This document shows, in pieces, positions 21,035 to 64,000 of a stretch of DNA of 64,000 bases. The position numbers were made by a program, and so were the translations under genes. Source of the stretch: Cyanidioschyzon merolae (Eukaryota); NCBI GenBank assembly GCA_000091205.1, contig AP006501.2, one strand, 5' to 3'. Under the pieces are notes generated by a model. It was given only the letters and a program-made list of their open reading frames with translations. It made no database searches and was not told the DNA's origin. Within the stretch, counting starts at the first letter, position 1, and each line of letters starts with the position of its first letter.

Positions 21035-24000
21035 CTACGGGAGGCGGGTGCGACGTGCCTTAAGCATGCGCCGCGGCGCCATGGTACCAGGAGCGTGCGC
21101 ATCGCCAAGGGCTTGCGTTGGTGCGAATCCAGGCGCTCCCAGCAACGGTGTCGCTGGCGGAGGCACGCCATTCGCCGCCGGGTCACTCGGAGCCAGCGAC
21201 GGCCACGGTAAGGACGCTGGCAACGGTGCGGCAGCGCCCGATGCGGGCCACGGTGATTGCAACGACGACACCGCTGGTGCCGAGACAGTCGGCGTCTGCA
21301 TCGGTGCACTGAGCGATGAGGTCGTCCACATTGATGTACCGTTCGTGCCTTGAGATGCCGATCCAAACCAGAAAGGTTCCGAATTGGTACTTGCTGTCGG
21401 TGCAGAGAACAACCAAGCGGGTGGTTTCGGCGGCGCGTTGCTAGCAGAAGCGGCGACCGTGGTATCAGTTGCGCCAGCCGCTGGTGGACCAAAGTGAAAC
21501 GTGCGCGCAGGAGCCGGTATCGCGAATGCTCCCTGTGAAATAGATGCCTTCGGTGCAGGGGCCGCGGTTGCGGGCACCTGTTGCGATGCCCCACTTGTGT
21601 CCTGCGATTGCAGGGGCGTCTTCTGGGGTGATTCCCCAAGCGCGGCACCAGCTGTGTCAACGGTTTGTATGGACTGCGTTTCTGTGGAATTCGGCTTCCG
21701 GGATGCGGTTCCGTCGCTGACGGGCGCTGCCGATGTCTCAGCCGCGGATTTGGTTTCGTACGCCGCCTTTTGCGGCATCGCCATCTCAGAGGCTGATTCC
21801 TGCTGCTCTTGCCCAGTACTGCCAGGCGGAGCGTGCATCCGTGGTACGTCATCGGGCGACGCTGACGCCAGCGTATTCGGCTTCGGGTCTGCTGGTGCGC
21901 CGGAGCACTGCGCGATCTCATCGTGTTCGTGCGGCAGTTCTGTCTGCACAAATCCCGCGAGCGATGTCTTTGCGATTTCCGACGACGACGGCGCAACGTC
22001 CAATGACCCTGATGCTGTTGGAGCAGGCGCTGCCGCATTCGGTGGTGCTATGTGTACGGAGGAGTCTGTAGATTCCTGTCGCGACGCTGATTCGCTCGAC
22101 ACCGGCACCGTCGAAGGCTGCACAGTCGTATCAACAGGCACGTACCCGGTTCTTTGAGTAGAGCCGGCTGTGGACAGTGATGGCGGTCGCCAAGGTTCCG
22201 GAATACGCGGCAACGCGATCTCGAGAGGGCGCATGCGCGGTGGCAGCGTCGGCAATGTCGGTGCGTCGGGACTGGAACCCTTCGACAACGTTGTCTCTGC
22301 AGCGTCGGCATGGAGCTGGGCTTCTGGTGACGCTTGTTGCGCGTGCTCTCCATGCTCTGGTAGCGACACCGTTCGTTGCACTTGGAGTTCATCATCGCCG
22401 AGTTTTGACGGGACTATTCGCCGCATGGCTTCGAGTTGCATGTCCCTGGCACCACCAGCCGCAGCACCAAATACGGTCGCAGATTTTGACCTGGCCTGCT
22501 GCTCAGCATCTCCTGTAGGTGGCAATGAAACAGCACCAGCATCCCGCGTAGTTGGCGCTGTGGTGTCATGCGTACCAGTGGCGGCGAGGTCCACTGCAGC
22601 AGCACTTGCATGCTGATCGGCCTTCAGCGGTGGTGTTCGCAAATGCATGTCTTGTTCGGCAGTGAGAGACGACGAGATGTTCGCGTCATCAGCGGAAACA
22701 TCCATCGAAAGCGTACGGCGCTTATTCCGAGCCGCCACTGTTTGCGCAGCACGGTCCAATGCGACGTCCAGCTCAGTACTATGGTCTATGGTGAAACCGC
22801 GATTGCTAGTCACGTCGGATGCAGCGGTTGCTGCTGCGGGTGTTCGCTTCCCAGGTGTTATGCAAGTGTCGCGCTCCCGCTCCGGCTGATCGCGAATCCT
22901 CTTCAGCGATTCGATGAGTTGATATAGGCGGCTCGTTGGAGCTCCAGCGCCATCACCATCTTTGCGGATGTCTGCTCGGGCTCGCTGACCATCGCGCCCA
23001 TTTTGATGCCTATCGGAACGCGTACCCGTCACGATAAGGTTAGCGTCTGATCGGCGCCGTTTCGCCGCACTCATCCGCAGTGCAGGCGATCCATCGAACG
23101 TCCAGACGGCATCTAAACTGCGGTTCTGCACGCTGTGCGCCTGGGATGGCACTGATCCGCTGCCCAGGGATCCAGACGGTAGCGCGCCAGCGCTCTGCTC
23201 GAACACGCCAATGGGGCTGGTTCGCTTCGCGGATGTCGCATTGCTTGTTCGCGTTCGCCCATGCGGGACGTCTCGCAGCGGAAGTGTCGTGAGCGGTACC
23301 GCAGGCAACTTCACGTGACGGACGTCTGCTCTATTTCGCAACCAGCCATCACTTCTGTCGTCGATAGCGCTCATTCCTGACCGCTCTAATTCGCGTCCAA
23401 GAAGGCTCGTCGATAACCTAGGATCCAGGTGCTCCTGCTGGTAGCTCTCTGGATGCGCGCAAAGCGTACTGTAGTGCTGCCTCTCGAGTGAAGCGTGCAA
23501 CGACGACGATCGAGCTCTGTAGGTGTCCAGCATCGACGACGACAGGCGTTCGGTGCTATGCTGTGTGAAACGTGCCTCTAGTCGCGACGCACCAGCGACG
23601 AAATCCGACTCGGTCGGTGTCCATGGCGACAGGCGGCGGAAATCGGAACCGCTTGGACGTACCGAGTACATGGTGCTGGTCGGTGTCGCGGCAGGGGCAT
23701 CCATAATACGCCGATGCGGCACGATCCCCAATGCAGACGGCCGTATCTTTGGTGCTGGCGGCAGGTCGGCCAAATTTCGGATGAGCGACTGCTCCTGCGC
23801 AGGAGATCCCCCTTTTGATGCCTGAATCGCAACGCCCATCGATCGCGTCTCTGTTCGCTGCCTGAACGTCCGAATGACATCGTAGCTGGTCACGAGCGAT
23901 GCCTGCCGGGTGCTACGCTCTGGTGCTCGCGAATCGTTCGCGGGTTGCGCTCCGTAAACCCGTGTCGTAGGGGATTCGGTGTGGGTCGCGGTGGTGGCTG

Positions 24001-25825
24001 CGGCGCGTTCATGTCGTGAGGTGCTATCCAGGTTCGTCAAGAGCTGGGTCGGGGCTAGACTCTCGTGCGGCTGCGATACAGCCGTCCGCTGCTCTGGCAA
24101 ACGCGCTGTCGGCACTGGCCCTGAAGAACAGGCGATCGCGGGAGCCAGCGAATCCGCAACATCGCGTGCCAGTGCGGTCGAGGTTGCGCGAGATGACGCA
24201 TCCGGAACCTGTTGCGTCGTGCCCGAGAGCACGGAATCCCGGGAATGCTGCGCTTCACTGGCGTACTGGTCACTTTCGGAGCGAGTGGGATCTCCAGTGT
24301 CCATCAGGAGGCTATCTTGCCTCTGGACGACTCCATCCTTCAGAGGCAACGCTTTCGAGTCGTTCGCATATTCGAGCTGCGTCTCTTGCTTGTGCGGCGT
24401 GTGTTTTGAAGCATCCTCGCACTCACGGGCCGAGTCTGCCGAAGCGGATACAGTCGCTGTTTCGCCGACCATGCGCGTACGCTGCACCGTCCCATTAGAC
24501 GCATCTCCATCTGATGATGCACTCGAATAGCGTCCACGATGTTCTCGTGAATCTGTTCTCGAGGACTGCAAGCCATTGGGAGATCCATGTTCAAGACTAG
24601 TCGACGCGGCAGGGGATCTGCTGCTCCCGCGCCAGAGACGCCACCATCTCGACAATGACATCTGGAGTCGTCCGAGCCACCCGTGCGCACCTCGAATCCT
24701 GAGCATAGCTCCAAGCGTCAAGTCTTCCCGTGAATTTGCGCAAAGCTCCTGTGCCTCCATCGAGCTCAGGGCTCGCGCGATGGCCCGGGTTTCGACGGCC
24801 ACTGCCCTGCTGGATTGCTTCCGTACGCCACCGTCGTGCTGTTTCGGTTTCGTCGCTCGCTGTACAGCTCTTGTGGTGCCTTTTTTACCAGGCACACTGT
24901 CCCGATTCATAACATGAGCTGTTCCTGTTCGCCTCTGTACGGGATGCGAGCGTCTGCCTGTCTGGCGTCCATGGACAACACCCGTCCCGGTCGTGGTCTG
25001 GTCATGCGCCTCGCGCACTGCATACAAGTGAGAATGTTCGTCCGATGAGGAGACGCTCCGCTGAGGCGATGCCTCCTCCTGATGATGACGCTCCCGCGGC
25101 AACGACTCCATTCCGGACGGCAAGTGCACGGACGCTGTGGCGCTGGGCACGCTCGAGCGCCCGCGTGGCGCTCGCTGCTGTGAGCCCCTGCCCGGAGACT
25201 CCGACTCGAGCGCACCTTGATTCGATGAACTCTGGACATATGTCGCTATATGATCGCTAGACTGGCGTTGTGCACTTGTGGAAACCGTTGATCGAGGCGT
25301 CTGCTCCGTCGCTCGGCAAGCAAGGGCAGCAGCTCTGCGCACCTGAGACCGCGTGAGTGGGCCATTCTCGTTCGAAAAGCTCGCTGTTGCACGCTTCTGA
25401 CCAGGAGCAAGTTCGTAGCCGGCCTCAACCGTCACACTTAGCCTTCGCACCGGGGTTTCGTGCTCGGGTCGCACGGGCGTGTCGGACGGAGTACCTGCGA
25501 GTCCTCCGTGTGGCTCCTGCACAGCTACTGGCGAACTCTCCGCTGACTGGTCTCTCCTTGAAAGGGTAGTGTCGCTACGCTCCCCAGCTGACTTTCTTCG
25601 AGCGGCTGATGTCTTGCGACTAGACTTCGTCTTCAAAGGCACGTCCGTCTCTACGGAGTGAGACGGCGTCCGCGTACTCGTCGACCTACTGGAACGCCGT
25701 CGGGGGGTCCGTCGTCGCGGGCTTGTCCTCCAACGGGCTTCGATGCGGGATCCTTCCGGCAAGTCATAGTTGCCGTGTCGCGTGCTTACCATACCAGCTG
25801 TCAGTGGACGCCTTGAGCGCACCAA
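21035..25825 (-). CDS. Very large (1596 aa) Ser/Thr/Ala/Pro-rich low-complexity, predicted-disordered protein of unknown function
   Basis: A 4.8-kb open frame is far longer than expected by chance at this GC content. The C-terminal part carries FG-like motifs (FHFGP, FWFGS) and there is no recognisable domain. A long Arg-rich shadow ORF (20704-22038) overlaps it in another frame. Confidence 0.5.
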   Translation of the reverse strand: MVRSRRPLTAGMVSTRHGNYDLPEGSRIEARWRTSPRRRTPRRRSSRSTSTRTPSHSVETDVPLKTKSSRKTSAARRKSAGERSDTTLSRRDQSAESSPVAVQEPHGGLAGTPSDTPVRPEHETPVRRLSVTVEAGYELAPGQKRATASFSNENGPLTRSQVRRAAALACRATEQTPRSTVSTSAQRQSSDHIATYVQSSSNQGALESESPGRGSQQRAPRGRSSVPSATASVHLPSGMESLPRERHHQEEASPQRSVSSSDEHSHLYAVREAHDQTTTGTGVVHGRQTGRRSHPVQRRTGTAHVMNRDSVPGKKGTTRAVQRATKPKQHDGGVRKQSSRAVAVETRAIARALSSMEAQELCANSREDLTLGAMLRIRGAHGWLGRLQMSLSRWWRLWRGSSRSPAASTSLEHGSPNGLQSSRTDSREHRGRYSSASSDGDASNGTVQRTRMVGETATVSASADSARECEDASKHTPHKQETQLEYANDSKALPLKDGVVQRQDSLLMDTGDPTRSESDQYASEAQHSRDSVLSGTTQQVPDASSRATSTALARDVADSLAPAIACSSGPVPTARLPEQRTAVSQPHESLAPTQLLTNLDSTSRHERAAATTATHTESPTTRVYGAQPANDSRAPERSTRQASLVTSYDVIRTFRQRTETRSMGVAIQASKGGSPAQEQSLIRNLADLPPAPKIRPSALGIVPHRRIMDAPAATPTSTMYSVRPSGSDFRRLSPWTPTESDFVAGASRLEARFTQHSTERLSSSMLDTYRARSSSLHASLERQHYSTLCAHPESYQQEHLDPRLSTSLLGRELERSGMSAIDDRSDGWLRNRADVRHVKLPAVPLTTLPLRDVPHGRTRTSNATSAKRTSPIGVFEQSAGALPSGSLGSGSVPSQAHSVQNRSLDAVWTFDGSPALRMSAAKRRRSDANLIVTGTRSDRHQNGRDGQRARADIRKDGDGAGAPTSRLYQLIESLKRIRDQPERERDTCITPGKRTPAAATAASDVTSNRGFTIDHSTELDVALDRAAQTVAARNKRRTLSMDVSADDANISSSLTAEQDMHLRTPPLKADQHASAAAVDLAATGTHDTTAPTTRDAGAVSLPPTGDAEQQARSKSATVFGAAAGGARDMQLEAMRRIVPSKLGDDELQVQRTVSLPEHGEHAQQASPEAQLHADAAETTLSKGSSPDAPTLPTLPPRMRPLEIALPRIPEPWRPPSLSTAGSTQRTGYVPVDTTVQPSTVPVSSESASRQESTDSSVHIAPPNAAAPAPTASGSLDVAPSSSEIAKTSLAGFVQTELPHEHDEIAQCSGAPADPKPNTLASASPDDVPRMHAPPGSTGQEQQESASEMAMPQKAAYETKSAAETSAAPVSDGTASRKPNSTETQSIQTVDTAGAALGESPQKTPLQSQDTSGASQQVPATAAPAPKASISQGAFAIPAPARTFHFGPPAAGATDTTVAASASNAPPKPPAWLFSAPTASTNSEPFWFGSASQGTNGTSMWTTSSLSAPMQTPTVSAPAVSSLQSPWPASGAAAPLPASLPWPSLAPSDPAANGVPPPATPLLGAPGFAPTQALGDAHAPGTMAPRRMLKARRTRLP

Positions 25826-26098
25826 GGGCTTTCAAGGCGTACGCAATGGTCGAAAACGCTTCTACGAGGTTCGTGCTGATCGCGCCAAGCCTCTGAGATC
25901 CGCTTGGTCCAGACCCGTGCTGGATCCTAGTCGGACACTGAGCTGCTTGATCTGCGCTTGCCTAGAAACTTTTTCACGAGTTTTTATACATGTCCAGCGT
26001 TAACATTCTAAATGCAGTTGTAGGGGCCCAGGGATTCATAAACACTTTTGCGATTGCCCGTTCATCTTTTCGGAATGGCTCACTCGACGCCGTCTGCC

Positions 26099-26800
26099 CG
26101 GTGGAATTCGTTGCGTCACCGATATCAAGACCATTCAAGACGTCCTCGAACAAGGTTTCTTGATGTAACCGATATCGTTTTCCAACGCATACGTAGAAGC
26201 GTCAAATTCGTTTCTGTCAAGCTAGCCTGTTGACGTCGTGCGTTCTTCTAGTTTTCCACGTTTCTGTTTCGAGGCAACTCGTGGGCGCAGCTGTTCGCGC
26301 TCCTGAATTGACGAGAAAAAGACTTGACGTCGACCATTGATGAATTGTTCACGAGTTCACGCAGAAATTTTTCCCAAAATCTTCACGTCGAATAATCAAT
26401 TCCTTTCGAAAGAAAACCCCTTATCTTATCACGGCCATCGATGCAACCGCATTCCACAAAAGCACGATGCTGCTCACCTGGGATCGTACACCAGACGATC
26501 ATACCGCTTCGGATTGCATGGTAAATGGCCGCGGATTCGGACTCGAGTCATTGCAGTGATCGTCCGGATTGGACAGATGTCAATGCTTTGCACGAGGGAA
26601 GCGTAGATGGATCGTAATTTATCGATACGCTCCGTCTTCTCAATTCACCACTCTGTGCTTGTCTCATCACGAGTGATATAGCGGCGCTCAAATCTTCCTC
26701 TGTTCTGGAGAAAGGCAGATGACATGGGACTCGTTATCTTTTACATTCGAACGAATTCTCCACGGTTCAACCCGGTCGAGTAGTTCGGGGCCTTGAAAAA
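26099..26800 (+). repeat. Dispersed repeat family 1, copy D
   Basis: It begins ggtggaattcgttgcgtcacc. The internal block gggcgcagctgttcgcgctcctgaattgacgagaaaaag...ttgttcacgag aligns with copy A (gggcgcagcaatgcgcgccgctggattgacgaggagaaaag...ttgttcacgaa). It is more diverged toward the 3' end, so that boundary is approximate. Confidence 0.45.
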
Positions 26801-28456
26801 CAGCTCCCGAGAAGCAAATGTCGGATTTGGATATCTTGGATCTGCCTCGACACGAACTGGTACTCGAGACTTGTGGCGCCGCAGTGGCGGCCATCTGACT
26901 CGCAGGGGCTACTTGCGCAAAAATTGTTTCCCTATTCGGATAGGGGATTCTTGCAGGGGCCGTAAGAAACGGGAAGACCACACAGTCAAGAATAAATATG
27001 CTTTGCCTGTTGCTCATCGGAGGAACACGCCCGAAGCGCGCCAGGTATGGCAGAGAGACCATCATGCAAGTGCAAACCGATATCCTGGCGCGTTTCCAGT
27101 GTAGTTGCGTGCCGCTCCCGGAGAACCTCGCTATTCTCGGATGGAACGCCCTCCTGGAAGAAGGTCATCGCTTGGACATCGTCTCGGATGAGAAGCTCTG
27201 TTTAACGCTGTTGCACGACGCATCGATTGTAGAGAGAAACCCGAGAATACACATACACTTGCCGGAACGCAAAGCCCGCATCCCAAAAATACGCACTGCT
27301 CTGTAGCAAGCTGAACAACGAGGTTACTTCACGCGTAACCTCCTGCTCTTTCTGTGTATCGTTGAGCTTTGGAACCTGTATGCGATCATTCAATCTCTGC
27401 TGTTTGCTCTTTTTCCGAATACAAGAGCATCTGTGGCGCGCGTTGTCGCCAGATAAGGAATACGCAGCGGAAAGAGACCCCAGTCTGGCGAACAAGTACC
27501 GCAATTTGGATCCGTCTACGCTCCATTCATGCAAAGTTCTGAGGGAATCTCCAATGAAAACGATCGCCGTGGTGACTCAAGTCCCAGCCCAAAGCCGTTT
27601 CTAATGCAAACAACGACTACGGGAGCCAATGGGAACGTATCCCGTGCGAGGCAACACGCTGCTGTCGAATGCTCTTTCGCCGATGCCCACAAAGAGAGGC
27701 GGATGTGACTTGCGAACGAAGTCGATTCTTTGGTGTAACAAGTTTGGTGCAATTTTGGCATGAACTCGTGAGGAACTCGGCAATGGTCGGCACTGAGCTT
27801 CTTTCGCTCGTCAGAATGCCGGCCGGAATTGCTGCACCTGCCACTTGCCCCGAGACGAAAACAACGCATCTAGGAAGCATGCGTGATTGAAGCCTGCCTT
27901 CCGCAAGAAAACGAATCGAATGCCAATGCATACGCATTTGCGAATGATATCGCTTATGGTACGAACCGTTCTTCGAGCGCGTCACGCATCATGTTGATTC
28001 CAGTGAGGTACCGAATTCAAGTGTCATAGATTCAACGATGCCGTTTCGCAAAAACAACCGAGAACCTTTATACTACGTCTGCACCCGTAACCTCGTATTG
28101 TTGCCCTGTGCTTGTCGAGACTGGACGTCTGAAAAATGATCCGAAAATGAGTCATACGGCAGGGAGCGTATGAGCTGTTCCGTGGACCATTCGATTCGGA
28201 GAGCGCATTTACGCGGTGGATGCGGCAGCCGTGAGTCTTTGCCTTTTAGAACAATAGGAGCACAAGCGGACATGAGCCTGGGCGCAACGCCCCGAGCCGC
28301 CGCCTGCGGGATCCGCGGCGGCGGGAACGTCCGCTTTCGGAAAGCGCGGGAACACGGCGACCTCGAACGACGAAGCGGCTAGCGCGCACAGCCAGCACAC
28401 GACAAGCCGCACTGCATTGTTCCGCAAGTGCACACACTCCTACGACGTTCGGAAAT

Positions 28457-29680
28457 ATGACGGGGGCACTGCGGTATCGAGCACTGGCTCGAGTCATAGA
28501 ACGCTGTCTGGGCTCGCGTGCGCTCGGCGAGAGCGGCTCAGCAGCTGCAGTCAGCAACTATGTCTGGCAGCGCGAAGCATCACGGGGTTTCGTGTTAGGG
28601 ACGCGCCTGCTGCCGTGGTGCCCGCTAGGGTCGCGTTTACTGCACAGTCCATCACAGACAGCGTCAGTTATCAGGATGAATACCGGTTCGTTTGCACCTA
28701 AACCCGATTTGGGTGAACAACAACCAAACACTCTGACGGGGCAGCCACGTATCATGGTCGTTGGGGTTGGCGGCGCCGGTGGAAACGCAGTCAACAACAT
28801 GATCGCGTCTTCACTGCCCGGGGTCGAGTTCCTCGTCGCGAATACAGACGCACAAGCGCTGAAAATGAGCTTATGTCCTAACCGTATCCAGTTAGGTGCA
28901 AGCCTAACTGAGGGGCTCGGCGCGGGCGCTCGACCCGATATTGGACGAGCCGCAGCAGAGGAAGCGTATGAGACGCTCAAGCGAGAGTTCCGAGGCGTAC
29001 ACTTACTGTTCGTCACTGCCGGCATGGGTGGGGGCACCGGCACTGGCGCTGCGCCCATCATTGCACGAGCAGCCGCAGAGCTCGGTTGCCTGACGGTTGC
29101 CGTCGTCACGAAACCGTTCCATTTTGAGGGCATGATCCGAATGAAAACAGCCGAGCAAGGCATCGTCGAGCTCACAGAACATGTCGATACGATGCTGGTC
29201 ATCCCGAACCAGAATCTCTTCAAAGTCGCCTCGCCGCGCACTAGCTTCCTGGATGCATTCCGCCTCGCCGATCACGTGCTCTACTCTGGTGTTCGTTCGA
29301 TTACAGACCTGATGACGGTACCAGGCCTGATCAATTTGGATTTCGCTGATGTTCGCAGTGTTGTTAGGGAAATGGGACGAGCCATGATGGGATCCGGTGA
29401 GGTCGAGATGGAGGCCGGCAACGAAGAACGCGCCATTCGCGCGAGTGAAGCGGCTATCTGTAACCCGCTGCTCGACGAGACCTCCTTACGCGGCGCTCGC
29501 GGGGTGCTTGTGAACATTACCGGTGGTACGGACATGACGCTTTTTGAGATAGATGCTGCAGCGAATCGAATTCGAGAACAGGTCGATCCCGATGCGAACA
29601 TTATTTTCGGATCGGCTTTCGATGCTTCGATGCAGGGGAGGCTTCGCGTCAGTGTTCTCGCGACCGGCATTCCATCCTGA
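28457..29680 (+). CDS. ftsZ: FtsZ, alpha-proteobacterial/mitochondrial type, with N-terminal presequence
   Basis: Tubulin/FtsZ GTPase motifs are present: [51 protein letters not shown] (TGTG variant), [15 protein letters not shown] and [12 protein letters not shown]. About 90 aa of Arg/Ala/Leu-rich N-terminal extension precedes the core, and the protein ends immediately after the core domain. Confidence 0.9.
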
Positions 29681-30584
29681 TAGGGTGCAAATTTCGAACA
29701 GGCCGACGACTGCTGAACGCGCTCACTTTGGGAACGTGATTCAGATCGTGCGGCGCTGGCGGCAGCAGATGCTCGTCACCTGTCGATATTACCCGATGAC
29801 GTCATATAGCATGCCGAACAGGTGCGCGATGCGGCTGCCACGCCTTGTCGCCACCGGCGTCTGCTCTGGACTGCTATCTTGCGACTGTCCACAGGCATGT
29901 GTTGTTGCTCAGTGCATACGCATCCCGTTGTTCTGTATCCGGCGTGTCGGTGGCGCAATCGACGCTCATCAGGCGCAGCGCTGGCAACAGGTGGACTTGC
30001 GTGGGCCGCACCCAGTTGTTCGGACAAGTCGCAACATGTGCGCAAATCGAGCGGGCGACATGAAACACCCCCGATCTAGACATTGACCTGTGCATAGAGG
30101 GCAACTATGGCTTCAACCGTGTTCATAGCATTCATCGCATATCTTTGTTTTACCCAATTCACGTTGTGTTTCTCTAAATACTTCACGTATCGCCACAGCA
30201 CCTGCAGTTCTCCCGGAGCATGATCGATCCGACAGGCAAAACGGATGACACGTTTGAGCGGCACCCGCTGCGTCTGCGTCATCTTTGAAAACTATGTGCA
30301 ACGGGCTGGGTGCGCATTGACGCCCAGTTGAGTTCGGACGCGCCACAGCACCGCCGTTTCATCACCTCTACCGTGAAGGCGGCGTCACCGCTTTCAGCTG
30401 GCTATTTCGGTAACACAGTCGATCTTTATATGATACATACAGCGTCGCTAGCGCATACAATCGCCCGTAACGCTGCCCGTTGATGCAGCATGCGGGCACC
30501 ATGCTACCTCGGTCAGCTACGAGCGCGCTCGACTCAAGGAGTACGTGGCGCGCCCCGGACATTCGGCGCATCGATCCAAGCGCA

Positions 30585-32417
30585 TCAGAACCTGAACAAG
30601 GGTAGTGAACTATCCACTTCGTTCCAGTTCTTGCTCTCGAACAGATCCTGAACTGTGCGACGTTTGGGCTGGGGTTGGAAAACCTGCGCCGTCCACGTAC
30701 CGTGCAGTCCCATGGGAAGAAACGTTCGTAGGGGCACTTTGCAAACGAGCTTGAGATCCGAGGCATCAAGAATGACCAAGTATGTGCTCCGATGCAACCC
30801 GTCACTGACCACACTGAGTATGTAACCGTCATCTTCCGCTGATTCCTTATCAGGTTCGATCAAGCGGGGCGCAAAAACTGGTTCCCCAGCGAATTCGTAG
30901 ACCGATGGCGGTTGCCACGTAGCTAGCGTCTGGCCGGTGTCGGCGTCGACCTTGATGATGTTCTTGAGAGGGCCTGGCTCCGTGCCAAGTGCGCTTGCCC
31001 CCATGTACACATAGCGATACGGCTGCGTAAGGCGGCTCGGGTTCACCACCGGAAAGTCAACGTGCGTCGTATTCACCTCACGCCAGGTTGCGCGCTGCGT
31101 TCCGCTGCCGCTGCGAGTCGGTATGCGACAGCGCCAAAGGCTGCACTTGGGAACTTGGGTCCCAAAATCGACTGCCTCCACGACACGCTGCGTGCGCGAC
31201 AATCCGTTTCGATGGCGACGAGTCTCTCCCAGGAACAACCGATCCATTCGACAAGCGTCAAGAACAACAGCGTCGTCGTCGTCGTCGTCGTAGGCGTTCA
31301 CAAAATGGAACGCTGTGCAGGTCTCACTCAGAACCTCACGCACAGGTGCACCCGGGTCGTCGCGAGGTATCAGCAGCAAACGCGTCGGCATTCGATCCCC
31401 TTCCCAGGTAATACACTCTCCTGGACACTTGAGTCCGAGCACGAAAGGAAGCGGATGGAAGCGCAGTGGCGCCTGCAGCAAAATATAGTAACGCTGCGTG
31501 ATCATAAAATCGTGGAAGAAACCAAATCCATCAATGTCCACCGTTCGTTCCGAGCATAGCTTCCAATTCTCTGATGCGAATTCCAAAAACCGGATCCGTA
31601 ACCCATTCAAATGCATCCGAGAGGAGAACCCCACGAGGCGTCCCCGGCGAAGTGGATCGACGTGCGGGTGTGCGGTGAACATCGGCATGGGGCCGGTGAG
31701 CGTCCCCCCGAGCCTGAAGACGCCCTTCGTTTCGAGCGTATCAGGGCGCAGCTCATAGGGCAGGCCGCCTTCGTACAAGGCAAGCAACTGGTTCGCGTGG
31801 TAGATCACGTTTGTGTTGGCGAGATTCTTTTGCTCAAGGCGGAACGCGTTGGTCACGATTCCACCCGGCAGCGGTGTAGCAAAAGTGCCGCGGTAGAGCT
31901 GATAGCCGGCGCGACGCTCTTTTAAGTAGCCCTCTGTTCGAACAAAACGATTGCGGAACCATACTGTTCCGTCTCCGCGCAGCGTGAACGCTGCAACGGC
32001 TCCATCACCTTCCCAGGGATGAAGCATTCGTCGAGAGCCAATGGTGAACTTGGATGGACCGTTTCGATACAGGGTGCCGACGAGGTCATGAGGAAGGTCG
32101 GGTAAGTCCAGTACGTAGGAGTCCTCCTCGTTCATATCGCCGTGCGCTAGCTCCCAGGATCGACGATCGAAAGCACTCAGCGACTGTGTTTTACCTGGTG
32201 CCGAGGTTAGCTGGCCCTGTTCACGAACCGTGTTGGTCGCTCCGCTTTCCTGGGAACTCAGATGTGTCGCACCGCCGCTGCGAGCAGGCCGAAGGCTTCT
32301 TCTCTTCAGTCTGCCACATTGGAAAGTAGCGGTGGCGTTCACACTAGCGCCCTTCCAGTGCCTGAGTGCACCGTTGCCGACCACGAAGGCAGTCTTATCT
32401 CCAGGATGCAAATTCAT
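30585..32417 (-). CDS. Carotenoid cleavage oxygenase (RPE65/CCD family)
   Basis: The 610-aa ORF spans the whole family. It has a conserved His-containing ladder (HPHVDP, FFHDFMITQRYYIL, HFVNAYDD, HGTW) and includes an acidic DDDDDD insertion. Confidence 0.85.
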   Translation of the reverse strand: MNLHPGDKTAFVVGNGALRHWKGASVNATATFQCGRLKRRSLRPARSGGATHLSSQESGATNTVREQGQLTSAPGKTQSLSAFDRRSWELAHGDMNEEDSYVLDLPDLPHDLVGTLYRNGPSKFTIGSRRMLHPWEGDGAVAAFTLRGDGTVWFRNRFVRTEGYLKERRAGYQLYRGTFATPLPGGIVTNAFRLEQKNLANTNVIYHANQLLALYEGGLPYELRPDTLETKGVFRLGGTLTGPMPMFTAHPHVDPLRRGRLVGFSSRMHLNGLRIRFLEFASENWKLCSERTVDIDGFGFFHDFMITQRYYILLQAPLRFHPLPFVLGLKCPGECITWEGDRMPTRLLLIPRDDPGAPVREVLSETCTAFHFVNAYDDDDDDAVVLDACRMDRLFLGETRRHRNGLSRTQRVVEAVDFGTQVPKCSLWRCRIPTRSGSGTQRATWREVNTTHVDFPVVNPSRLTQPYRYVYMGASALGTEPGPLKNIIKVDADTGQTLATWQPPSVYEFAGEPVFAPRLIEPDKESAEDDGYILSVVSDGLHRSTYLVILDASDLKLVCKVPLRTFLPMGLHGTWTAQVFQPQPKRRTVQDLFESKNWNEVDSSLPLFRF

Positions 32418-36229: not shown

Positions 36230-37030
36230 TTTGCTGCTTGAATTCCTTACGGCACAGGGGTAAAGATGCTCTGTGACGCCCTCGAGCAAAGCTTCGAATC
36301 ATAATCGATATTATCGCCCTTTGCGTATGTTCATGTCTGTACGCTTCTCCTTTCTTAGCGTATGGCATGCGAAAGTCGTGCATTCCTCAATTCCTCAACC
36401 TTTCTGTTTGAAGCCGACCTGTGCACACTGCAATTCGCACGCTTCCATGAACGTGGAAATTACTCGACGTCGAGCCTTGACGACCGGTTCACAAGCACAT
36501 GCCCAACGCTCACTGAACTCGACGTACGATTCTAGAATCGATTCAATTTTGGGTGGCAAATCAGCCGCGCGCTGTGGCTATCGACGAACCGACATGGAGC
36601 AACTGGTCGACACCTCTCACGGTACGTGCTGCAAGAGGCTTCCGTCTCTTCTGTTTGCACGAAAACTGGTCTCGGACATCCACTTCAGTTATCACAGCGA
36701 TCGCTTCCAGCGCAGCGTGCAGCAACGCTTGACAAGAAGCGAGCCTAGCCGGATCGAATTTTCTCGATTTGTTCTCCAAACTGGATATAACTTTCCATGC
36801 TTGCTGCATCAACGACAGCACCCGATGCCGCATATCACCCATCGAATGGAACAGAGTGCACTTGTGTGCGCACTGGAAAGAGCTCTCTCCTGGCGAATCG
36901 CCCAGCGGATGCCCGTATTCGTGGGGTACGTACGGCACTGGGTGCTACGCATCCAGACTTGGCTTGTGCTCGAGTCCGGCGTTCGAGCAGGACACAGCAG
37001 GTATCCGCTGCTGGTTACCGAGGGTACTCC
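36230..37030 (+). repeat. Dispersed repeat family 1, copy C
   Basis: The segment gacgccctcgagcaaagcttcg...attatcgccc aligns with copy A (gacaccctcgagcaagcgttcg...attatccacg). The core cccatcgaatggaacagagtgcacttgtg lies at 36847-36875, and homology continues to about 37030. The 307-aa ORF 36273-37196 inside it is probably fortuitous, because the other copies are frame-broken. Confidence 0.55.
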
Positions 37031-37211
37031 AGCGCACATGCCACGCTTTTTCTGCGACAGTGAAGCTGCGAGCGCAGCCCGTGGAGCTCCCGGTACGTCG
37101 AAACGTTCGCAAAGTTTGCGAACGAGTCAGCGGTACTCACGTCTGGTGAGCGTTTCGCGAGAAACCTGCTTCGGCTCTGCGTGTCGTACCGCTTGATTCT
37201 GACGAGATCTA

Positions 37212-39194
37212 GTGCAGCGTACGATGGAGAGTCGACCGTATCACCGTTCATTTCTTGAACAGCTTAACGCAGAACTGTTGCTTTGGATCGCAGCGTACCT
37301 GGAGCCGTCGGAGGTGGAAGCTCTCTGGAGCGCCTCCCAATCGACTGCCTCAACTCTTCAATGGAATGATCTTGAGCACTTTTGCTTTGAGACGCTCCGC
37401 CGTCGCTATGGTTCTCTCTTCGCCCGACACCTTCAGCAAGCGTACCGCCAGGAGCGGGAAAGACGGGGTCCCGGTGGCGTCCGCGGGCCCTGGAGCTGGC
37501 GGCGGGCCTTCCACTGCGTCTACCACGCTCACCGGTGGCTGTTTGGCGTGAGCTTTCGCGCCAGCGCTCCGCATACGGAGACTTCGTCCATGACGTGGTC
37601 AGCAGTTTTTCGGGAGCGACGCAGCGCTCCGTCTGAGTCATCCCCGAGTCCACCGTGGGGCCGTCTCCTGGTCCAACGCTTCGACCAACGGGCCGTCGAG
37701 GGTATCGGGAATGGTGCGCTGCTCGCTGCCGTACTACGCATGCGACCTGACAGCGCTAGCCGAGACCCAGTGTATGCGGAATGTGCGCTGATTGTGACCC
37801 CGTATCGCATTGTCTGGTTCGAAGCGACACCCCTGTCCGGCTCTGATCTGTGCCTGGACACCGAGCGGAGTCACTTGCTCACCACGCCGCTCGTGCTGAC
37901 GGCAGCGCTGAGCGACGATGAGCGACTACTGGTGCTAGGTCGTCGAGGCTGCACCCTCGAAGTGCGTGATGTCATGACCTGCAACGTTGTTGCTGAGGCC
38001 CGCCTCCCGGTGCGCATTTCGAAACGGGACGAGTACTCGTGCCTCGACGCTGCGGGCGATATGATCGCAGCAGGCACCATGGCTGGTAGGCTTTTGATTT
38101 TCGATTGCACGCAAGCTCTCCAGAAGGGTGTCCAGCGAACGGGTACCGTGCGCCTGAAACCTGTGCGAATGGAAATAAGTACAAGCGGTGAGCCGCTCTC
38201 GCAGGTGCGCCTCTGCCGAAGCGCCGAAAGCAGTCATCGTCCCGATCTCGTTGTGGTGTGCACTCAAAAGCAGTTGCGCATCTACTATATCCAACTGGGA
38301 CTTTTTATCTTCCAGCGGGATTTCGAGCGCCCCATCCGTAGCGTACACAGCGCGCGCTCTCGTACCTGCATTTACATTGCTTCGGGGAGTACGGTGGACA
38401 TTATCGAACTACCGGCCTTGGAGTATGCGGCGACACTGGGGCGTCCATCGATCATGAGCGAAGACGATCAATTGACCTGTATTGCCGTTGACGAGCACGG
38501 CAATGTTGCTGGCGGCTGGAGCAGCGGACACGTAACCTTTTGGCCGGCACGAGGACGCCTCGTTGGCATCGCGCTAACCTACCACGATCGTCACTTGGAC
38601 CTGCACGAATGGAAGCAGTCTGGGCGTGTCTGTCGGACGGATCTCTCACAGGACGTCGATGAGCTTGAAAGGAATGCCCAGTCGGCATGGTGCGGATCCC
38701 GAAGCCCCATCCGAAGCATCTACGTCGATCGTGATCGAGTGATCAGCGCCTCGAGTGGCGGCGTTATAGAGGTTTTTGCTCACCAGCAGGTAATCGAGGC
38801 ACCAGCAGTTCATTCCTTACGACACGAATCATATGCTCATGCCTGGCAGCATTGCCGCACCGCTCGTATTTCGATACCGAACCTGCACGGAGACATCACG
38901 CATCTTAGTGCCGGGGAAGGGACACTGCTAGGCGGTCTCTGTGGCGACGCAGCGAGTGCGCAGCGGTTGCCGCTCGTCTTGCTTCAGTTCTCTGCGCTGC
39001 GAGACCAGAGTAATGGTGGCGCTGCAGAGGCCGACGAGTCGGCTGACACACTCGGCTGTGCTGGAGTTGCTGGCGGAGCACCCGTGCGGTATCGCGAAAA
39101 CGGTTGGCTCCCGCCCGCAGACATCATCCAGGCGTTCTGGGTGCTGGAGTCATCTGGTCCCGACAAGCTCGCGCCCGTCATCACCCGAGACTGA
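37212..39194 (+). CDS. F-box domain protein (possible beta-propeller C-terminal region)
   Basis: The N-terminal segment LNAELLLWIAAYLEPSEVEALWSASQSTASTLQWNDLEHFCFE resembles an F-box. The rest of the 660-aa ORF has no confidently recognised motif. Confidence 0.5.
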   Translation: MQRTMESRPYHRSFLEQLNAELLLWIAAYLEPSEVEALWSASQSTASTLQWNDLEHFCFETLRRRYGSLFARHLQQAYRQERERRGPGGVRGPWSWRRAFHCVYHAHRWLFGVSFRASAPHTETSSMTWSAVFRERRSAPSESSPSPPWGRLLVQRFDQRAVEGIGNGALLAAVLRMRPDSASRDPVYAECALIVTPYRIVWFEATPLSGSDLCLDTERSHLLTTPLVLTAALSDDERLLVLGRRGCTLEVRDVMTCNVVAEARLPVRISKRDEYSCLDAAGDMIAAGTMAGRLLIFDCTQALQKGVQRTGTVRLKPVRMEISTSGEPLSQVRLCRSAESSHRPDLVVVCTQKQLRIYYIQLGLFIFQRDFERPIRSVHSARSRTCIYIASGSTVDIIELPALEYAATLGRPSIMSEDDQLTCIAVDEHGNVAGGWSSGHVTFWPARGRLVGIALTYHDRHLDLHEWKQSGRVCRTDLSQDVDELERNAQSAWCGSRSPIRSIYVDRDRVISASSGGVIEVFAHQQVIEAPAVHSLRHESYAHAWQHCRTARISIPNLHGDITHLSAGEGTLLGGLCGDAASAQRLPLVLLQFSALRDQSNGGAAEADESADTLGCAGVAGGAPVRYRENGWLPPADIIQAFWVLESSGPDKLAPVITRD

Positions 39195-62093: not shown

Positions 62094-64000
62094 CAACGGG
62101 CGAGCGCGCGATGCGTGCAGGTACGACGTATGCGCCCGCTGGGCATGCAGCAGCAGCGCCGTCGACGTCGACGCCGCTGATGCCGTCGACGGCGACGACG
62201 ACGGCAATGCGGCACGCCTGGCAGCAACGGTCTTGAGACCAAGGCGGTGTACCGCCTGACCCCATGTCCGCGGACTTGTACACGAAGCGGGCTGGGATTA
62301 GAGGCCGGTAACGCCGGCAACCTCAAAAGGCGCCGAAACGCCCTGCAAGTGCCGGCACTGGTGACCGCGGAGCGCCAACTGCCGCTTGGTGTGCTCAATG
62401 ATCCTAACGCTGATGATCCTGCTATTGCAGTTTTCATAGCAGCTCGGCAACCGCGCTTTGGTAAGGAGCAAAATCGTCAAAAGCCGGCAGTGATCGCTGT
62501 CGCTGCGGTTGCCGCATCACCTCTTGGTATCGCGAATGGCGTCCTTGATGCCATTGTCGATGCACTCGTGGACGTCGTTCGACGTCTGGATCCCTCGTTG
62601 CCGTCGACATCGGTCCATGAGCGAGCGATTCGAAGGTCGATGGTTGCAGCGATAGGGCCGAACCCTGCGACTGCAGATTACGGGTTCGTCACGGTTCGTT
62701 CGGATGTGCTGAAAGCGATTTTCTTGCCGTGGGCGGAACGCCCGCATGTCGGCCTGTCACGCCGCTGCTATTTTGTTCAGGATATTCAAAACGATGTGCA
62801 TTCAGTGATTTGTCGGAGCCGACGTACGCGTCTATCCTTTACGGTTTTGGCGCAGCGTCTGACGGGGCGTCACCGGAGCCTGGCGAACCCGTTACCAGCG
62901 ACACGTGAGTCGCACGGTATCCAGTTCCCGTTGCAAGAGTGGCATCTTCGACTCGCGCCTCCTGTTTACGAACGATTGCGCTGCATTGGCGTTGGACAAG
63001 TTGAGTTGACGCGCGTGCTTTTGCCGCGCGTGCCGATCACATCTCGCGAGGATATGCGTCATTTTTCCTACATCGTTTTTGGAGTGATTGAGAGTGTGGG
63101 CGTTGTCTGATGCAATGCAGACCGGGGGTTTCCCCAGCCCTAGTGTGCAACGCGTTCCAAAAGACGTGTTCTGCTTGATGGACACTAAGCGTTTTGATCA
63201 GCGGCCGACTTGTTGCATCGTACGCGAGTCCCGGTGCCAGAGCGGAGGCAGCCTTTTCCGCCAGCCTGTGTCAATGGAGATGTGCTTTAGCGGGCTCGCG
63301 TCTGCTGACCTTGATTCCAGTTTAGTGCGCTTTCGGCATGAGTCTGTGAGCAATTCATCACCGGACGAGATCAAGTGTTTCCCCTGCCTATCCAGCGCTG
63401 CGAGTGATTGCATGCGCAAGTTGCCTCGCGATAGAACAATAGGAGACTTGAAGAACGTCTGCTTCGAGCTTGCGACATGGAAGGAAAACGCAAGAATCGG
63501 GGCCTGTACATATAAATGGGTTTTCATATCGATTACTGTACGAAGCCTTGCACGAGGGCATCGCTCATCATCATCATGATACCAATCACGTAACGTTTCC
63601 CAGCGACAGAGCGTCGAAGGAGCCACTCCGAAAAAATCGGTCTATCATCGTGGAACTAGGCGTGAATCCGTAAATCCTAATTGCTGAACTTGGATTATCA
63701 AGGCTGTCCGAGTATAAAATCAAGTTCCGAAAATCAACGAAAAGCAGGAGTAGAACGAGCAGTCCAGTTATCTCGTTTTATCGGAGCCGCGCGCATGGTG
63801 GATGCGCTTCTGCAGCGTGTTTGCGTTCGGTCCGTTAGCGCGCGTTGCGAGGCTTGCGTTCTGATTTTATGAAAGCTGGTGTTTCTCAGGTTATTGTAGA
63901 TACGTTTGTGGTGGCTTGTCTCGGTCTTGCCGGAGCCATTATTGGTCTGGAGTACGCTTTGGACGGTGACGAAGCCGCCTGCAGCGAACTCACCAACGGC

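Follow-up and report, generated by a model that had tools for sequence, protein, structure and literature searches.

FtsZ1-1 of Cyanidioschyzon merolae: a nucleus-encoded, tail-less mitochondrial FtsZ of alphaproteobacterial descent

Alphaproteobacterial FtsZ proteins, among them those of Rhodovibrio sodomensis, Pelagibius, Azospirillum and Geminicoccaceae, share the T1 loop and the motifs GLGAGA/S, PFHFEG and NLDFAD with the mitochondrial division protein FtsZ1-1 of Cyanidioschyzon merolae, but differ from it at both ends, as they carry no N-terminal extension and continue into a variable linker of 164–281 aa that ends in the anchor-binding peptide DIPAFLRR. Two FtsZs from other eukaryotic supergroups resemble FtsZ1-1 in architecture: Dictyostelium FszB, a tail-less mitochondrial FtsZ, and protein CCI39333.1 of the oomycete Albugo candida (62% identity, 6-residue tail) both combine a nucleus-encoded alphaproteobacterial-type core with roughly 100 additional N-terminal residues and end only a few residues past the core, although their extensions are unrelated in sequence to that of FtsZ1-1. 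The same two-paralogue design, with one member lacking the C-terminal anchor-binding motif, is found in plastids, where red-algal FtsZB and green-lineage FtsZ1 are the tail-less partners; the FtsZB proteins of C. merolae and Galdieria stop right after ...VVATGF(A)S, just as FtsZ1-1 stops at the end of its core. In contrast to FtsZ1-1, however, these plastid paralogues are of cyanobacterial descent, share 45–52% identity with it, fall on the other side of the FtsZ tree and belong to the plastid stroma.

[quoted passage not shown] This ring forms earlier than the dynamin and MD rings. The findings are summarized in reviews whose sources for the localization are Takahara 2000, Nishida 2003 and Yoshida 2009. 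These accounts agree with the mitochondrial division ring that a sequence-only reading of the locus had proposed for this organism. FtsZ1-1 was first published by Takahara et al. 2000. The literature also reports that ftsZ1-1 was induced in late S phase in synchronized cultures and that the haploid stage accounts for most of the expression of both FtsZ1 genes. The gene is a textbook case for the view that mitochondrial division once relied on a bacterial Z-ring, which some eukaryotes have kept in use beside dynamin, and for exactly this gene the evidence has been in the literature since 2000–2004.

Within the window, by which we mean the whole stretch of 64,000 nt of C. merolae DNA analysed here, a complete single-exon coding sequence of 407 aa plus a TGA stop occupies positions 28457–29680 (+), precisely as the sequence-only reading had given it. 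The ATG at 28457 is the first in-frame ATG, and the upstream in-frame stop ends at 28249. An exact-sequence look-up revealed that the translation is 100% identical over 407/407 residues to FtsZ1-1 of C. merolae 10D (BAM82940.1 / XP_005538976.1 / BAA85115.1), the entry name being 'mitochondrial division protein FtsZ1-1'. The comparison with CmFtsZ1-1 (CMS361C; BAA85115.1 / XP_005538976.1) showed residue-for-residue identity over 28457–29677 without any difference, and the adjoining gene fits CMS362C; a 2026 Plant Cell supplementary table also lists CMS361C as FtsZ1-1 and as the neighbour of CMS362C (9-cis-epoxycarotenoid-dioxygenase-like). It is as good as certain that the open reading frame is the nuclear gene CMS361C of C. 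merolae 10D, placed on chromosome 19 because of its CMS locus prefix, and that FtsZ1-1 is a tubulin-like GTPase whose origin lies in the alphaproteobacterium that gave rise to mitochondria; none of our results speaks against this. FtsZ1-1 is thereby an already known, experimentally studied gene and not a new one. The text of a 2009 DNA Research paper (PMC2646357) calls CMS361C 'ftsZ2-1'. As the exact match in the database and the 2026 Plant Cell supplement both give mitochondrial FtsZ1-1, this is probably a label slip.

Core domains and alphaproteobacterial descent

Profile searches revealed that the Tubulin/FtsZ GTPase domain, with the T1 loop and the T3 motif GLGAGA present, covers residues 98–258 (28748–29230, +; Pfam PF00091, E = 2.3e-47, score 162.2 against a cut-off of 33), and that the C-terminal globular domain of FtsZ covers residues 307–405 (29375–29671, +; Pfam PF12327, E = 2.8e-33, score 114.5 against a cut-off of 27, profile positions 1–94 of 95). 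The NCBIfam equivalog TIGR00065 ftsZ scored 388.2 bits against a cut-off of 295.2, and residues 89–405 align end to end and without large gaps with residues 5–317 of the solved FtsZ chain 8h1o_A (E = 5e-96). The motifs GVGGAGGN (residues 103–110, T1), GGGTGTG (191–197, G-box) and NLDFAD (293–298, T7) are all in place. The G-box / T4 loop, which the sequence-only reading had quoted, lies at residues 189–203 (29021–29065, +) and is the sole FtsZ signature found when the window is translated in all six frames. The T7 synergy loop NLDFADVRS at residues 293–301 (29333–29359, +) is kept in all aligned sequences and aligns to NVDFADVR of 8h1o_A; through this loop, each subunit of a filament contributes catalytic Asp residues to the one that follows. 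The final strand of the core closes at ...VSVLATGI, the last strand predicted by AlphaFold2 comprising residues 395–403. A chance match as the basis of the FtsZ assignment of 28457–29680 is ruled out, and FtsZ1-1 is a full, apparently functional FtsZ core with all GTP-binding and T7 catalytic motifs intact.

Database comparisons placed the cyanidiophyte orthologues first, with Cyanidiococcus at 78% identity overall and Cyanidium caldarium and one further relative at 76–78% over the core. After these, the best 120 matches were alphaproteobacterial wherever the source was named, which was nearly always the case, and shared 67–71% core identity with FtsZ1-1; examples include Rhodovibrio, Kiloniellaceae, Geminicoccaceae, Azospirillum, Tistlia and Dongia. 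In the direct comparison of the two types, core identity to FtsZ1-1 amounted to 66–69% for alphaproteobacterial FtsZ versus 45–53% for cyanobacterial and plastid FtsZ. A neighbour-joining tree was calculated from 318 well-aligned columns with 300 bootstraps for FtsZ1-1, its four cyanidiophyte orthologues, eight alphaproteobacteria, cyanobacterial and plastid FtsZ, and two outgroup sequences. The cyanobacterial and plastid sequences came partly from a bait search, while plastid FtsZA and FtsZB of C. merolae and Galdieria were taken from the supplementary FASTA of PMC11285052. FtsZ1-1 and the four orthologues formed one clade with 100% bootstrap, and this clade joined the eight alphaproteobacteria, all of them Rhodospirillales-like taxa chosen from among the best matches, again with 100% bootstrap. 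The plastid FtsZA and FtsZB of C. merolae and Galdieria fell with the cyanobacterial and plastid sequences, a grouping with only 53% support.

These data bear on the question whether FtsZ1-1 might instead be a plastid-targeted FtsZ of cyanobacterial origin whose extension is a transit peptide. The plastid of C. merolae does divide with FtsZ, an N-terminal extension alone cannot tell the organelles apart, and tail-less plastid FtsZs such as FtsZB exist. Against this stand the identity values and the 100% bootstrap for the alphaproteobacterial grouping, as well as the fact that C. merolae FtsZA and FtsZB already serve the plastid and branch elsewhere in the same tree, inside the cyanobacterial/plastid group from which FtsZ1-1 is excluded. 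Moreover, the database name and the reviews put FtsZ1-1 in mitochondria, and its T1, T3 and T7 motifs have the alphaproteobacterial form. A plastid origin is refuted by the phylogeny, and we give it practically no credence. The alphaproteobacterial, mitochondrial type that the sequence-only reading had preferred over the plastid type was therefore borne out by the FtsZ phylogeny it had called for, with the core identities and the uniformly alphaproteobacterial best bacterial matches pointing the same way.

The marker on which that earlier assignment had leaned did not hold, however, since the G-box is variable in both clades. GTGTGAAP is found in cyanobacteria, C. merolae FtsZB, Arabidopsis FtsZ2, E. 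coli and B. subtilis, and the Cyanidium mitochondrial orthologues carry GTGSGAAPVVA, the very variant that had been taken as plastid-type. This variation within both clades ruled out the G-box as a lineage marker. Three other loops separate the types in our sample: T1, with the form shared by FtsZ1-1 and alphaproteobacteria versus the plastid/cyanobacterial GGGGxNAVNRM; T3, with alphaproteobacterial GLGAGA/S (GLGAGA in FtsZ1-1) versus GLGAGG; and T7, with NLDFAD in alphaproteobacteria and FtsZ1-1 versus NVDFAD.

The tail-less C-terminus and the second mitochondrial paralogue

FtsZ1-1 ends two residues past the core end ...VLATGI, where tandem stop codons TGA TAG (29678–29683, +; context CCATCCTGATAG) close the reading frame, whereas its alphaproteobacterial homologues run 164–281 residues further to DIPAFLRR. 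The tail motif [DE]xPx[FWL][LMI][RK] was found in no forward frame over 29581–30600, and a search of the 900 bases downstream of FtsZ1-1 yielded no tail-like motif in any frame. The stop lies 1–3 residues after ATGI in all five cyanidiophyte sequences, i.e. FtsZ1-1 and its four orthologues, while the Albugo candida protein has a tail of 6 residues past the core. The tail-less state is thus common to Cyanidiococcus, Cyanidium, one further relative and A. candida.

As canonical bacterial FtsZ always has a linker and a C-terminal peptide, a stop at the end of the core looks suspicious at first sight and could indicate an artefact, be it a truncated pseudogene, a stop introduced by a sequencing error or a missed 3' exon. 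Such an error would have to account for two consecutive stops with no tail motif in any frame behind them, and for a stop position shared by five out of five cyanidiophyte sequences and nearly matched in Albugo. The core is strongly constrained, with 92–93% identity to Cyanidiococcus, and variants of the gene from metagenomes encode the same 407-aa product. The gene is cell-cycle regulated, FtsZ1 proteins have been detected by proteome analyses in Cc. yangmingshanensis, and C. merolae has only 27 introns. An artefact of this kind has a negligible chance of being correct. Judged from the compared sequences, the tail-less state of FtsZ1-1 is real, old and conserved, and a truncation artefact is excluded, because the alphaproteobacterial homologues run on to DIPAFLRR, no motif follows downstream and the stop position is shared among the cyanidiophytes. 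The absence of the linker and C-terminal peptide noted in the initial reading was thereby confirmed. What FtsZ1-1 lacks is the canonical bacterial linker together with the D/E-I-P-x-F-L-R peptide, which is a trait of the canonical architecture and not of the family, as plastid FtsZB is without it too.

A second paralogue elsewhere in the genome, which the sequence-only reading had suggested looking for, does exist: it is FtsZ1-2 (CMT493C), which lies on another chromosome and is described in the literature as single-copy in three cyanidiophyte genera, with mtFtsZA/mtFtsZB as an alternative naming of the two mitochondrial paralogues. Its Cyanidiococcus orthologue is BHE84217.1. A six-frame search did not find FtsZ1-2 within the 64,000-nt window, and it was absent from the best 120 word-index matches and from the best 150 matches of an exhaustive representative search. 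Among the latter 150, the proteins with long N-terminal extensions were bacterial, save that of Albugo candida. Of the two mitochondrial FtsZs in C. merolae, one reportedly lacks the C-terminal variable domain (Miyagishima and colleagues, 2004). The present data identify FtsZ1-1 as this member, and FtsZ1-2 would then be the tail-bearing one. Regarding the wider distribution, the list of lineages previously named as keeping mitochondrial FtsZ (stramenopiles, amoebozoans and red algae) was too narrow, as glaucophytes, haptophytes and jakobids also retain it. Within the Cyanidiophyceae, Galdieria has lost mitochondrial FtsZ.

From these features a mode of action can be proposed in which FtsZ1-1 would be synthesized in the cytosol, imported via its presequence and polymerized head to tail with GTP. 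Since FtsZ1-1 has no C-terminal peptide with which to dock on membrane anchors in the bacterial manner, its filaments are probably tethered indirectly, which may occur by co-assembly with FtsZ1-2 (CMT493C), through core-binding partners such as ZED, or both. Tethering within the FtsZ1-2/FtsZ1-1 pair would then parallel that of the tail-bearing and tail-less plastid pairs FtsZA/FtsZB and FtsZ2/FtsZ1. The locus touches on how a tail-less FtsZ holds at the inner membrane, which is a real question, though not a new one.

The N-terminal extension

Residues 1–82 (28457–28702, +) form an N-terminal extension that is absent from alphaproteobacterial FtsZ and can be described as a putative mitochondrial presequence followed by a disordered spacer. 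The core motif starts at residue 97 in FtsZ1-1 versus residues 15–16 in alphaproteobacteria. An extension of about 90 aa had been proposed initially; its presence was confirmed, while its length was corrected to 81–82 aa in comparison with alphaproteobacterial FtsZ. Counted as far as the Pfam domain it is 97 aa, which makes 90 a fair approximation. The extension evolves fast, with 26–29% identity between FtsZ1-1 and Cyanidiococcus compared with 92–93% in the core. Acidic residues are absent from its first 14 positions, where three Arg occur, and an Arg-rich amphipathic segment at residues 8–18 (28478–28510, +), within the putative presequence, has a helical hydrophobic moment of 0.89. When the first 40 residues were shuffled 2000 times, only 1.8% of the shuffled sequences attained this value; for the plastid FtsZA and FtsZB of C. 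merolae, the N-termini do not exceed 0.45–0.46. AlphaFold2 predicted a helix at residues 2–17 and gave pLDDT values below 50 for residues 36–94, in a model that is mediocre overall (mean pLDDT 62.9, from a 16-sequence alignment).

These features are typical of a targeting peptide; as simple measures of composition and amphipathicity they are consistent with a mitochondrial presequence but not conclusive. The presequence call also draws on the published localization, which is the decisive evidence for mitochondrial targeting. The proposal of a nuclear-encoded protein with an N-terminal targeting extension is supported by the fast-evolving, Arg-rich amphipathic start and by the name of the identical database entry.

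An internal in-frame ATG at 28676–28678 (codon 74) lies near where the bacterial protein would begin and may be what is left of the start codon of the ancestral gene. It raises the alternative that translation begins at Met74 for part of the FtsZ1-1 pool, which would then remain outside mitochondria or have a dual localization. The position of this ATG close to the bacterial start point, a prokaryotic-style gene call from a metagenome (P0122, 334 aa) that begins at Met74 and the presence of a Met nearby in the Cyanidiococcus orthologues are in line with this idea. The Met is not kept in Cyanidium, however, the P0122 call is an automatic prediction, and the published work describes a mitochondrial ring only. 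We therefore regard an internal start as very unlikely. A broader proposal starts from the observation that only the first ~20–40 of the 82 residues are presequence-like. Residues ~40–95, predicted to be disordered, might be kept on mature FtsZ1-1 as a eukaryote-specific adaptor or membrane tether that replaces the C-terminal peptide, or else a Met74 start might give rise to an untargeted pool. We consider this combined proposal a long shot; if true, either variant would represent a mode of tethering or localization undescribed for any FtsZ. The preferred reading is that of an imported FtsZ1-1 with an N-terminal presequence.

Genomic setting and hot-spring variants

The neighbours of FtsZ1-1 encode a RibD-like protein, eIF3h, SPT16/FACT, a mitochondrial carrier, an AI-2E-family transporter, Rad52, translin and an rRNA methylase, together with a Myb protein, a P4-ATPase and a protein kinase. 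Directly downstream, at 30585–32417 (−), lies an RPE65/carotenoid-cleavage-oxygenase-family gene (CMS362C, NCED-like), and the gene order given in the PMC13353863 supplement shows the two genes side by side in Cyanidium caldarium as well. The GC content of FtsZ1-1 (0.577) and its GC3 (0.593) agree with those of its neighbours, and the exact match sits on a C. merolae contig of 1,282,939 bp. FtsZ1-1 is nuclear-encoded, as evident from the ordinary eukaryotic nuclear genes on its flanks and from the match on this 1.28-Mb contig.

An identity of ~70% to FtsZ of free-living alphaproteobacteria is unusually high for a eukaryotic gene and could point to an alphaproteobacterial contaminant or a recent horizontal transfer instead of an old organelle-derived nuclear gene. 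Typical eukaryotic nuclear genes stand on both sides, however, and GC and GC3 fit the neighbours, so that contamination or recent transfer is excluded. In addition, the 82-aa extension and the loss of the tail are unseen in the bacterial homologues, three other cyanidiophyte genera have orthologues of the same architecture, and Cyanidium keeps the NCED-like neighbour. We assign this explanation a vanishingly small probability and retain that of an old nuclear gene derived from the mitochondrial ancestor.

The stretch upstream of FtsZ1-1 (25826–28456) is unusually long for one without a called gene (2.6 kb) and has a GC content of 0.50 versus ~0.56. It lies between FtsZ1-1 and a divergently oriented 1596-aa open reading frame at 21035–25825 (−), which has no Pfam domain at E <= 0.001 and is called as a 1585-aa gene in metagenome contigs carrying FtsZ1-1. 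The E2F-like motif TTTSSCGC, sought in view of the S-phase expression, was not found in 25826–28456, and its 17 occurrences in the window, compared with 16.5 expected, show no enrichment. No tRNA or Rfam family was detected in the window. Two antisense open reading frames inside FtsZ1-1, at 28558–29241 (−) and 29281–29670 (−), have no Pfam match and were set aside as ordinary shadows of a GC-rich gene. Pfam matches were likewise absent from three open reading frames of 307, 660 and 287 aa within 36273–39194 (+) and 62247–63110 (+).

Near-identical C. merolae-like contigs carrying FtsZ1-1 (L001–L006) are present in the JGI metagenomes 3300050354, 3300050355 and 3300050385 and in several SRR296058xx/059xx runs (Logan). 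The variants encoded in these hot-spring metagenomes differ from FtsZ1-1 by one to two residues (G27S, R73G, G109R). Two of the three polymorphisms, G27S and R73G, fall within the N-terminal extension. The third, G109R in variant P0123, affects the invariant T1 loop and would probably weaken GTP binding, unless it is an assembly error.
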